This document shows positions 13,080 through 19,691 of a stretch of DNA of 19,691 nucleotides, in pieces. The position numbers were made by a program, and so were the translations under genes. Within the stretch, counting starts at the first letter, position 1. Each line of letters starts with the position of its first letter. This stretch comes from Candidatus Hermodarchaeota archaeon (lineage in GTDB: Archaea > Asgardarchaeota > Hermodarchaeia > Hermodarchaeales > Hermodarchaeaceae). The notes under the pieces are model-generated. The model was not told the DNA's origin and did not search any database. It saw nothing but the letters and a program-made list of their open reading frames with translations. The stretch is from positions 1 through 19,691 of the forward strand of contig JAEOUH010000061.1 in the NCBI GenBank assembly GCA_016839365.1, given 5' to 3'.

Positions 13080-13604
13080 TTATTGTTCAAGCTTCTCGAT
13101 GATTTGCTCAGTAATCATGCTAAAGGCGTCTTCTACTTTCTCCCCACTTAAGGCACTTGTTTCAACGAAAGAACAGCCATACCTATCCACCCATTCTTGG
13201 ATGTCATCTGGTTTGACGGATCGTTTCTTCTTTAAGTCCGCTTTATTCCCAATTAATAGAACTTCAACATCACCAGCGTGTTCACGGATTTCACGCATCC
13301 ATGTTTCAATTGCCTCCAGGGTTTCAGGACGCGTAAGGTCGAATACCAACATTGCCCCGTCTGTTTGTTTATAAAAACTTGAACGATATGGGGCAAATCG
13401 TTCTTGACTGGCGATATCCCAAATAATTAAGCGTGCCACCTTCTCTTCTAGTTCTATGATTTTATAAGCAAAGTCTACTCCAATGGAAGCTTTATACTCA
13501 CGTTCGAACCGGTTTTCCACATACTTCAAGATAAGGCTCGTTTTCCCTACAGCTGGATCGCCAACTAAAAGTATCTTAAACTCATAGTAGGGCTGTTTTG
13601 CCAT
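13080..13604 (-). CDS. Rab-like Ras-superfamily small GTPase without a prenylation tail
   Basis: G1 GDPAVGKTS; RabF1-like IGVDF; 'RLIIWDIASQERF'; 'SFYK..DGAMLVFDLT'; G4 NKAD; G5 SAL. Ends ...IIEKLEQ with no Cys. Upstream on the minus strand are AGGTG (13612-16) and TTTAATAA (13644-51). Confidence 0.95.
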   Translation of the reverse strand: MAKQPYYEFKILLVGDPAVGKTSLILKYVENRFEREYKASIGVDFAYKIIELEEKVARLIIWDIASQERFAPYRSSFYKQTDGAMLVFDLTRPETLEAIETWMREIREHAGDVEVLLIGNKADLKKKRSVKPDDIQEWVDRYGCSFVETSALSGEKVEDAFSMITEQIIEKLEQ

Positions 13605-13723
13605 ATTTTTACACCTGGTAAATAATGTACCGTGTACTCTTTCTTATTAAACTAGTAGTAACAAGCCATCTTTCAGAAAGGGTATTCAAGGATTACTCTA
13701 AATGGAAGATCAACTAGGTTCCT

Positions 13724-14710
13724 CTAGGCAATCACTTCATCAGGTTCCTCTTGTTCACTCCAACTTTTGGTTCGGAAGAAATCATAGAAGCTGGCTTCCA
13801 CCACGCTTAGTTCTGTTGGGAGTTGATTCCGTTCACGAAGTGCTTTCAGTAGATTTGGCAATTGTGCGTGTGGTTCATCTACAAAGACTTTCAGGCTACC
13901 CCGACCGGATCGAATGGTGGTTTCAACAAAGGGGATATCACTGACTTGCTGGATTGTTTCCTCGGTGAGGCGGTCGAAAGTCACTTCGATAGCTTCACCT
14001 TTCCCTGTCAGAGATCGAATCAGTTCATCCGGATGTCCTTGCAAAGATATAGTTCCCTTCTCAAGCAATACTACTCGGCTGCAGTATTCCACCACCTCGA
14101 GGTCATGAGAAATCAACACCATTGATGTGCCAAAATGGTAGTTTAACTGCTTTAGATAATTAAGCAGTTCATGACGCAGATGGGCATCAAGTCCCGTTGT
14201 TGGTTCATCGAGAAGAAGAAGAGGAGGTTGATGAATCAGTCCCACACAAATGGAAACACGTTTACGCTCACCACCACTCAGGAACTTAACGGGCTTGTGC
14301 ATCAAGTCTTCATCAAAGCCTAAGATATCAAGGATTTCACTGGCACGGCGCTGGATTTCCCTACCCGTGATGGCGTACATTCGTCCAAAGAAATGAGCGT
14401 TTTCGAGTGCTGAAAATGGAAAGTAGAGGCTTTCATCTTCGTGCTGCGGCACATACCCAGTTGCATAATGGATGGCTGCAGCATCCCTTTTCACATCGTA
14501 ACCGGCGATCCGTGCAACCCCTCTGTGGGGTTTGAGTTGGGCAGTCATAACACGCAAACAGGTCGTCTTCCCCGACCCAGATGCACCGATAACACCCAGG
14601 ATTTCTCTTTCACGGGTATAGAAGGTGATATCACGGAGAATATTCACTCGTCCAATTCGGACGGAAGCCTGGTCAAACTCGATGATTTTCGGGGGTTTTT
14701 CTGCGGTCAT
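13724..14710 (-). CDS. ABC-2/DrrA/GldA-type ABC transporter ATP-binding protein with a C-terminal accessory domain
   Basis: Walker A GASGSGKT, Q-loop GYVPQ, signature LSGGERKR, Walker B LLLLDEPTTGLD, H-loop ISHD, ~100-aa C-terminal extension ending 'SFYDFF'. Confidence 0.93.
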   Translation of the reverse strand: MTAEKPPKIIEFDQASVRIGRVNILRDITFYTREREILGVIGASGSGKTTCLRVMTAQLKPHRGVARIAGYDVKRDAAAIHYATGYVPQHEDESLYFPFSALENAHFFGRMYAITGREIQRRASEILDILGFDEDLMHKPVKFLSGGERKRVSICVGLIHQPPLLLLDEPTTGLDAHLRHELLNYLKQLNYHFGTSMVLISHDLEVVEYCSRVVLLEKGTISLQGHPDELIRSLTGKGEAIEVTFDRLTEETIQQVSDIPFVETTIRSGRGSLKVFVDEPHAQLPNLLKALRERNQLPTELSVVEASFYDFFRTKSWSEQEEPDEVIA

Positions 14711-19107: not shown

Positions 19108-19113
19108 TCTAGA

Positions 19114-19691
19114 TTACACCTCTAATTGTCGTCCTGTGATTAGTATGAAGTAATCGGTCATATCTACGCCGATTTTGGGTTTAACACTCTTAATTTGGAT
19201 ATCTTGGTCCTGAAGGGCTCGGACGACTCGTTCTGACATTTCAATTAAGGGTACTTCACTGAAGATTTTGATGAGTTCACCTCGCTCCAGAACATGGATG
19301 ATACCCCTGACATCTTGCAAGAGTGAGGCTATCCCTGGACGTGGCTGTTGGAGAATAATCCCAACAGCATATCCTTTTCCTGGAAGTGAAGCTTTCAACT
19401 CATTGGGACTTCCATAAGCAACAAGACTGCGTTCACGCATGAACACTCCGACTGTATCACAGTATTCAGCTTCGCCAGGATAATGGGTGACAACAATCAT
19501 GCTGGTCCCATATTCTCGATTCAAGTAATCGAGGTAGTCCCAAAGTTCACTCCGCATGTCTGGGTCCAGTCCTGAGGTAGGCTCATCAAGTATGAGGAGC
19601 TGAGGTCGGTGAACCATAGCAATCGAAATTGATGCACGTCGTTTCTCGCCTCCTGATAGGGTTATTACACTTTGATTTCCTTTTTCAAAAA
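19114..19691 (-). CDS. ABC-2/DrrA/GldA-type ABC ATP-binding protein, 5'-truncated by the window edge
   Basis: Frame is open to the window end: ...VITLSGGEKRRASISIAMVHRPQLLILDEPTSGLDP...VVTHY. Its C-terminal domain parallels that of 13724-14710. Confidence 0.92.
   Translation of the reverse strand, partial: FEKGNQSVITLSGGEKRRASISIAMVHRPQLLILDEPTSGLDPDMRSELWDYLDYLNREYGTSMIVVTHYPGEAEYCDTVGVFMRERSLVAYGSPNELKASLPGKGYAVGIILQQPRPGIASLLQDVRGIIHVLERGELIKIFSEVPLIEMSERVVRALQDQDIQIKSVKPKIGVDMTDYFILITGRQLEV

Follow-up and report, generated by a model that had tools for sequence, protein, structure and literature searches.

A co-inherited Asgard gene module that places a predicted pseudoprotease with a GIFT domain among the genes of an ABC-2 transporter

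ABC-2 transporters, a type of ATP-binding cassette (ABC) system, may be encoded with a large extracytoplasmic accessory protein, and the closest described examples are GldA/GldF/GldG of Flavobacterium and the systems with a PF09822 protein. In the Gld system the accessory protein contains a GIFT-type domain and is held by anchors at both its N- and C-terminus, and a single nucleotide-binding domain (NBD) of the DrrA/GldA type, with a C-terminal domain, is present. Looser parallels are offered by the Wzm-Wzt O-antigen exporter, in which Wzt is an ABC-2 NBD with an extra substrate-recognition domain, by NosDFY, in which a large outer partner accompanies an ABC-2 transporter, and by FtsEX-EnvC, where the outer partner driven by an ABC pair is catalytically degenerate. 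The GIFT domain is a class to which GldG, OST48, IFT52 and site-1 protease (MBTPS1/S1P/SKI-1, here S1P) belong (PMC11231238). S1P is an active protease in which S8, P-like and GIFT domains are followed by a transmembrane (TM) helix, and its GIFT subdomain supports the oxyanion Asn (PMC11231238). Here we describe a gene module at the right end of a contig from Candidatus Hermodarchaeota archaeon (JAEOUH010000061.1, assembly GCA_016839365.1), in which an ABC-2 transporter with two ATPases is encoded together with a 1463-amino-acid (aa) membrane protein joining a GIFT domain to a subtilase domain that, from its residues, is catalytically dead. The window analysed is this entire contig of 19,691 nt, C35 in our numbering. 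The module is a variant of the known kind of ABC-2 transporter with a GIFT accessory protein; our literature search found no paper describing it and none joining Asgard archaea to site-1 protease.

Layout and conservation of the module

Four co-directional minus-strand genes, ATPase1, the 1463-aa open reading frame (ORF), ATPase2 and a small GTPase, are separated by 6, 5 and 119 bp, as read from the ORF listing and its translation:

19114..19689 (feature to 19691), minus strand: ATPase1 (NBD1), only the last 191 residues, with the gene cut by the contig end (PF00005, TIGR01188 drrA)
14716..19107, minus strand: 1463-aa ORF, predicted type I membrane glycoprotein (domain matches, alignment to 3AFG, structure model, 37 sequons)
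13724..14710, minus strand: ATPase2 (NBD2), 328 aa, DrrA/NatA-type NBD plus C-terminal domain, with all catalytic motifs (PF00005, TIGR01188)
13080..13604, minus strand: Rab-like small GTPase, 174 aa (PF00071, E 2.5e-50), a neighbour rather than a conserved system component

The cluster runs past the right edge of the window. The last 127 bases of C35 overlap exactly with the first 127 bases of another contig of the same genome, C46, whose bases 128-1214 continue ATPase1; C46:105-1214 matches residues 1-370 of the orthologue in a 90%-identical relative (G007) at 95% identity. Directly upstream of ATPase1 on C46 lies a 373-aa ABC-2 permease (G000:C46:1224-2342), also 95% identical to the copy of this relative, in which the complete order is permease, 6 bp, ATPase1 (554 aa), 1463-aa protein, ATPase2 and GTPase. 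The right end of the window probably carries three of the four genes of one operon, in the order permease, NBD1, pseudo-subtilase/GIFT protein and NBD2: the gaps of 5-6 bp are accompanied by motifs resembling Shine-Dalgarno (SD) sequences (GAGGTG and GGGGGT, 8-10 nt 5' of the starts of the 1463-aa gene and ATPase2), and in the relative just 6 bp separate the permease from ATPase1 downstream of it. A scan for bacterial promoters and terminators gave counts not above those of shuffled sequence.

A preliminary description of this DNA, made from the sequence and its ORFs, had proposed a dead, S1P-like protein with a GIFT domain between two paralogous ATPases that keep the Walker B Glu and the H-loop His, followed by a Rab-like GTPase with its own TATA box and SD, and had asked for an ABC-2 permease beyond the right edge. 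Its ORFs, gaps and quoted ATPase motifs are reproduced here, the permease is now located on C46, and the other points on this list are upheld by the comparisons below, the likeness to S1P being one of architecture.

The permease is of the ABC2_membrane_3/RbbA type and matches ABC-2 families only (PF12698 ABC2_membrane_3, E 1.4e-25 for the G007 orthologue). It is encoded upstream of ATPase1 in this genome and in all relatives with enough contig. Two paralogous permease genes are present in two further lineages, a Helarchaeota-like genus of family f9 and family f23 (L052:12749-15083, L053:11756-14060), which suggests a heterodimeric membrane core there.

The gene set is kept far beyond the genus, and in more than one arrangement. 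The cassette permease-ATPase1-S8/GIFT-ATPase2 is found in 14/14 Hermodarchaeia loci as far as the contig reaches, in 4 Thorarchaeia loci and in family f26. In Freyarchaeia, ATPase1-permease-ATPase2 is divergent from the S8 gene, still adjacent to it, while in the Helarchaeota-like genus and f23 the two permease genes precede ATPase1-S8 with ATPase2 nearby. The expected synteny of ATPase, pseudoprotease and ATPase thus holds in the same order in three lineages and as adjacency with rearrangement in three more, and fails in Jordarchaeia, where the pseudoprotease gene is unlinked and ATPase1-permease-ATPase2 is present elsewhere in the same genomes. Overall, all four components are found together in at least seven Asgard lineages (Hermod-, Thor-, Jord- and Freyarchaeia, f26, f23 and the Helarchaeota-like genus) in five gene arrangements, four of them adjacent, with adjacency in 6/7 lineages. 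Among 251 Asgard genomes, the N-terminal domain of ATPase1 was detected in 16/18 genomes of family f1, 58/60 of f6, 5/5 of f7, 6/6 of f18, 1/1 of f26, 3/5 of f23 and one genus of f9; these lineages also have full-length pseudo-S8/GIFT proteins. Together, the four components form an ancient Asgard module that is co-inherited. Few multi-gene membrane systems are kept, as this one is, in many Asgard classes, and it has a near-private domain. Chance adjacency appears very unlikely, because one gene set recurs in five arrangements, with this near-private domain and with mirrored ATPase trees.

The paired ATPases and the outer protein

Both ATPases have an ABC_tran domain of the DrrA/NatA/GldA type (Pfam and NCBIfam). 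They are 33-39% identical to each other and reciprocal best paralogues in the genome, and Walker A, Q-loop, signature, Walker B Asp-Glu and H-loop His are invariant in ATPase1 and in ATPase2 (12 species each). In a maximum-likelihood tree in which they were compared with 7 other NBDs of this genome, each is monophyletic (100/99) and the two are sisters (99/99); moreover, their clades share the topology ((Jord,Frey),((f26,Thor),Hermod)), with the names abbreviating the lineages above. By these comparisons, ATPase1 and ATPase2 look like an ancient pair of paralogues that arose from one duplication and co-evolved, both of them competent-looking.

Full-length ATPase1 (~554 aa) consists of a 240-aa N-terminal domain resembling the TrmB effector domain, a DrrA-type NBD and a C-terminal domain. 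With PF11495, the model for that effector domain, matches were obtained for 13/13 such N-terminal domains (best E 1.6e-10). A search of 1.84 billion representative proteins gave 25 matches to the domain of ATPase1, and all the named ones are Asgard. Among those scanned, 8/8 full-length matches are fused to an ABC NBD, and no Pfam match was obtained for matches of 239 and 294 aa (scanned) or 178 aa. The domain is thus nearly private to the ABC/pseudoprotease module. A profile search of Protein Data Bank (PDB) sequences with it returned no match and an ESM Atlas feature search no usable one, and a fold search with the whole ATPase1 model returned NBD matches over residues 236-550; NosF, the NBD of NosDFY, is among the fold matches. 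Start-codon calls are uncertain in these metagenome-assembled genomes, several orthologues needing GTG/TTG starts or showing a shortened first ORF (ATPase1 of L016/L017; L032:12899-13879). In DZ2M.269, the ATPase2 ORF has 273 aa, yet tblastn covers residues 1-322.

The 1463-aa protein is laid out as signal/anchor, pro-like region, dead S8 domain, beta-sandwich, GIFT domain, second beta-sandwich, TM helix and helical cytoplasmic tail:

17716..18588, minus strand: Peptidase S8 domain, residues 174-464 (PF00082, 150.7 bits, E 6.8e-44)
18148-18150, minus strand: oxyanion Asn replaced by Asp320 (alignment to Tk-SP, 3AFG)
17839-17841, minus strand: nucleophile Ser replaced by Ala423 (alignment to Tk-SP, 3AFG)
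16408..17610, minus strand: beta-sandwich region, residues ~500-900 (VIA Z ~20, ~230 aligned residues), resembling the N-terminal super-sandwich domains of GH15, GH94 and GH116
15394..16077, minus strand: GIFT domain, residues ~1011-1238 (IFT52 N-domain 5FMS: Z 23.0, root-mean-square deviation (rmsd) 1.9, 193 residues aligned)
14953..15027, minus strand: C-terminal TM helix, residues 1361-1385 (hydrophobic run, then NQYRRKRQMR; helix in the model)
14719..14952, minus strand: cytoplasmic helical tail, residues 1386-1463 (conserved; predicted helices)

The S8 domain keeps the subtilase fold and family assignment and lacks the full set of active residues, that is, the Asp-His-Ser triad with the oxyanion Asn. 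In the alignment to 3AFG (E 1.9e-48), Asp183 and His226 are retained, and the nucleophile and oxyanion positions are substituted not only in the window protein but in all orthologues examined from the seven lineages, where Ser is replaced by Ala, Gly or Leu and Asn by Asp. In addition, the triad His is Arg in three lineages and the triad Asp is lost in two genomes. Judged by these residues, the subtilase domain is catalytically dead, and the protein belongs to an old pseudoprotease family rather than being a decayed gene, because no orthologue examined is free of the substitutions at the nucleophile and oxyanion positions; in fact, the protease fold and the tail are conserved across lineages despite the dead triad. 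Public databases name the protein "S8 family serine peptidase". This label is wrong, and protease counts in Asgard metabolic reconstructions are inflated by it, because a protein so labelled cannot be a peptidase if its triad is dead.

For the whole protein, Pfam and NCBIfam give Peptidase_S8 and weak GIFT/ABC_transp_aux matches. The structure of the remainder was read from an AlphaFold model of residues 500-1463 only, which leaves out the protease domain (mean predicted local distance difference test score, pLDDT, 73.7). The beta-sandwich region at residues ~500-900, for which the Pfam scan gave no match, occupies the position of the P-like subdomain in S1P, and the second sandwich lies between the GIFT domain and the TM helix. 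The GIFT assignment is also supported by sequence: the family profile matches IFT52 (E 4.7e-10), and the isolated domain scores 30.1 bits with PF23355 (IFT52_GIFT; cut-off 27.2). With PF09822 (ABC_transp_aux), the Jordarchaeia orthologue reaches 36.8 bits (cut-off 34.7) and the window protein 27.3 bits, below the cut-off; an accessory membrane protein with a domain of the GldG/GIFT (PF09822) class is therefore part of the module. The tail is homologous in Hermod-, Thor-, Frey- and Jordarchaeia and f26, with invariant Pro, Asn, Ala, Asp, Leu and Gly. A reading of its end as an MIM1 motif was rejected by eye, since ENMLKRLRELAK is out of register with (D/E)xxLxxRLxxL(K/R). N-x-S/T sequons number 37 against 12.6 expected from composition. 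A word-based homologue search with the C-terminal 964 aa returned relatives at the level of Hermodarchaeia only; the distant orthologues came from genome searches.

Among described proteins, S1P is the nearest in architecture. Both have a pro-region, an S8 domain, a beta-sandwich (P-like in S1P), a GIFT domain, a single TM helix and a basic tail, in the same order, and the modelled non-catalytic region matches S1P (8UW8, 9CSD) at residues 443-872 with Z 19.1 and rmsd 4.7 over 311 residues. They differ in that S1P is active whereas Ser and Asn are replaced in the 1463-aa protein, and in that the latter has a much larger sandwich region, a 78-aa helical module as its tail and an ABC transporter as its partner; MBTPS1-specific Pfam models did not match it. 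The term "site-1-protease-like" thus holds for the architecture, as far as a predicted model can tell. With OST48/WBP1 (6S7T_G, 6EZN_G), the GIFT domain, a second domain and the C-terminal TM helix align (Foldseek E 3e-11; VIA Z ~19, model residues 512-892); the rmsd is high (~20) because domain orientation differs, and OST48 has neither a protease domain nor an ABC partner. Reported Asgard homologues of WBP1 are restricted to Heimdallarchaeia (PMC10307638), so that the 1463-aa protein is not the orthologue described there. CspC and CspA of Clostridioides difficile are S8 proteins in which the subtilase fold was likewise selected after loss of the triad, for a non-enzymatic role in binding or signalling. 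Their NCBIfam models give partial matches that are short and local (34-45 bits against cut-offs of 675-1250); however, they are soluble spore proteins that act with active CspB and have no GIFT domain, TM helix or ABC partner.

Other Asgard families encode S8 proteins with the full triad, in which the GIFT domain follows directly after S8 and precedes a TM helix, with a zinc-ribbon tail in 2/3:

L056:7516-11331, L057:6285-10058 and L058:6492-10430: active S8+GIFT proteins

One of these lies beside an FtsX-type permease and NBD and shows a weak match to PF23090 (MBTPS1_4th; 23.7 bits against 27).

A proposed ABC-2 machine and competing explanations

Our best reading, with a rough probability of 0.7, is that the module encodes an ABC-2 machine resembling GldAFG, in which two different NBDs pair up and the pseudoprotease/GIFT protein is the outer subunit. 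The permease would form the transmembrane core, as a homodimer here and from two paralogous permeases in some lineages, and its energy would come from a heterodimer of NBD1 and NBD2 in which both ATP sites work. The pseudoprotease/GIFT protein would be the extracytoplasmic accessory subunit, in the role that GldG has for GldA/GldF, held by its TM helix and conserved cytoplasmic tail. More tentatively, the machine may export or extract a surface component, probably a glycan or glycoconjugate: on the cytoplasmic side, the N-terminal domain of ATPase1 would recognise or sense the substrate, like the carbohydrate-binding domain of Wzt, and the ectodomain, with its intact but inactive cleft, carbohydrate-module-like sandwich and GIFT domain, would receive or hold it outside. 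The PF11495 match, the carbohydrate-module-like sandwich, the company that GIFT domains keep and the 37 sequons point weakly to a glycan. With two different NBDs as a pair, a sensor-like domain on one of them and a pseudoenzyme as partner, the ABC design would be unusual and of interest to transporter structural biologists.

How far the machine is Gld-like deserves care. Shared with the Gld and PF09822 systems is an ABC-2 transporter encoded with a large extracytoplasmic accessory protein, and shared with GldAFG are the GIFT-type domain, the anchoring at both termini and the NBD type with its C-terminal domain. By contrast, there are two NBDs here, one with a 240-aa TrmB-like N-terminal domain, instead of one; the permease is of the ABC2_membrane_3/RbbA type and not GldF; a dead subtilase and a large beta-sandwich precede the GIFT domain, and a conserved helical tail is added; and the system is archaeal. 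GldA/GldF/GldG equivalogs were considered and rejected: TIGR03522 (GldA) scores 135.1 bits against 402.6 and TIGR03521 (GldG) 14.7 against 389.85, and no GldF model is among the permease matches at E<=1, the best of which is of the RbbA type. Hence the preliminary proposal of a Gld-like ABC machine stands as to the ABC-2 permease and GIFT accessory protein and falls as to membership in the Gld families. The likeness to Wzm-Wzt, NosDFY and FtsEX-EnvC would be an analogy of mechanism and not homology: the extra domain of ATPase1 is N-terminal and TrmB-like rather than the beta-sandwich of Wzt, the outer partner is not the beta-helix of NosD, and the permease is not of the FtsX type, placing the module outside Type VII (FtsEX/MacB).

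Several points weigh against the GldAFG-like reading. The permease is not GldF-like, and the GldA and GldG scores just given are far below cut-off. It is unusual for a permease from one gene to be served by two different NBDs. The glycan part leans on weak domain resemblances: for the N-terminal domain of ATPase1, the match covers just the C-terminal third of the TrmB model. A substrate cannot be deduced from the sequence. In Jordarchaeia, moreover, the S8/GIFT gene is unlinked from the ABC genes and has TPR and MIT-domain genes as neighbours, so that the tail of its product may have other partners. Complex prediction with full ATPase1, ATPase2 and a 72-aa tail scored 0.00 against a mark of 0.32, which is evidence neither way.

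The main rival, unlikely in our view, is a mechanotransducer, in which ATP hydrolysis by the NBDs, passed on through permease, TM helix and tail, would reshape the ectodomain and so control how a protein or peptide ligand is bound or released, or activate a true hydrolase, for instance the 1672-aa subtilase encoded 2 kb away. Precedents are offered by FtsEX-EnvC, whose partner is a degenerate enzyme, by NosDFY and by the action of CspC on CspB. Selection has kept the protease fold and its cleft motifs though the triad is dead, and the cytoplasmic tail is conserved, both of which would suit such a device. An active membrane-anchored S8 protein with a full triad is nearby, in a neighbourhood conserved in Hermodarchaeia, although it is absent from Thor-, Frey- and Jordarchaeia loci. 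An active S8+GIFT protein of another Asgard family is found beside an FtsX-type ABC pair, and NosDFY, whose NBD is among the fold matches, is an ABC-2 machine of solved structure that has a large outer partner; the permease here, however, is of the ABC-2 type and not of the FtsX/MacB type that defines known mechanotransmission ABC systems.

A broader idea, more speculative again and rather improbable, extends the GldAFG-like reading to ancestry. Perhaps an Asgard family of membrane-anchored S8/beta-sandwich/GIFT/TM proteins, with active and dead branches, was the prokaryotic stock of S1P and maybe of the GIFT-TM part of OST48; the dead branch would have become the outer subunit of an undescribed class of ABC-2 machine, in which a TrmB-like sensor gates glycoconjugate export or remodelling and the tail links to cytoplasmic partners (MIT/TPR proteins in Jord- and Freyarchaeia). 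In any case, the outer architecture is common to two eukaryotic secretory-pathway proteins, S1P and OST48, and the module is therefore a clonable target for asking what Asgard surfaces are built from and where S1P-type proteins originated.

A role for the Rab-like GTPase in the machine, as a working part or a regulator, had been cautiously proposed in the preliminary description and is very improbable. The GTPase is co-directional and 119 bp downstream of ATPase2, and the adjacency is kept in both Hermodarchaeia genera (gap 111-128 bp in the first). Nonetheless, Hermodarchaeia are the only lineage in which it comes after ATPase2; the 10 kb around the module are free of GTPase genes in the Thor-, Frey- and Jordarchaeia, f26, Helarchaeota-like and f23 loci. 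Within Hermodarchaeia, the downstream aminotransferase and further genes are as syntenic as the GTPase, which moreover has its own conserved promoter:

13605..13723, minus strand: spacer between ATPase2 and GTPase with conserved archaeal promoter, TTTAATAAG (TATA box 13643-13651; SD AGGTG 13612-13616)

The block GTTACTACTAGTTTAATAAGAAAGAG and GGTG are conserved in 9 Hermodarchaeia loci. Because it is linked only in Hermodarchaeia, the aminotransferase is equally syntenic, and it has its own TATA box and SD, the GTPase is treated here as a probably separately transcribed neighbour outside the machine, with ordinary family-level synteny.

Hardly credible is the last alternative, that the pseudoprotease is an independent surface or S-layer-like glycoprotein whose position among ABC genes is functionally meaningless, for although it is encoded away from them in Jordarchaeia and is sequon-rich like surface glycoproteins, it stays next to them in 6/7 lineages, through four distinct adjacent arrangements, matches in its phyletic range a domain otherwise almost unique to the partner ATPase, and is inserted between the NBD genes with 5-6 bp gaps in Hermod- and Thorarchaeia.

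Neighbouring genes

The best PDB matches of the GTPase are all Rab11, Ypt1, Rab8 or Rab1 (E ~1e-40). Its G3 motif is DIAS and not DxxG, and Ser replaces the switch I Thr (13400-13490, minus strand); both are kept in 10/10 Hermodarchaeia orthologues aligned. A second conserved block in the spacer, AATCCTTT, lies upstream of the TATA box at 13685-13700 (minus strand) and at the orthologous positions.

Other neighbours of the module are found in particular lineages. In Thorarchaeia and f26, a giant protein of 1876-2273 aa with beta-propeller and TSP3 repeats is encoded 3-35 bp after ATPase2, and is absent from the Hermod-, Frey- and Jordarchaeia, Helarchaeota-like and f23 loci. In Jord- and Freyarchaeia, the pseudoprotease gene is followed by a convergent conserved trio that encodes a 275-aa TPR protein, a protein of ~131 aa and one of ~1045-1094 aa with a weak MIT-domain match; no homologue of this MIT-domain protein was found in the Hermodarchaeota genome studied here.

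L045:10065-16883, L046:14009-20644, L048:10486-17217 and L054:1-5628: giant beta-propeller/TSP3 loci
L021:12123-16726, L022:3458-7965, L051:11899-17015 and L055:12064-16996: convergent trio loci of Jord- and Freyarchaeia

On the window itself, the 1672-aa subtilase (5950-10968, plus strand) has an intact triad (DTG, HGT, GN, GTSMAAP), a PPC domain and a C-terminal TM anchor, and is probably a real surface protease; its neighbourhood is conserved in Hermodarchaeia at 36-92% identity. Positions 1-4654 (plus strand) encode an Opp/Dpp-type peptide ABC importer, with two BPD_transp_1 permeases, of which one (702 aa) has a large insert, and two oligo_HPY ATPases, and the aminotransferase lies at 11705-12991. 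With a peptide importer, an aminotransferase and an active protease, the contig looks like a peptide-use neighbourhood.

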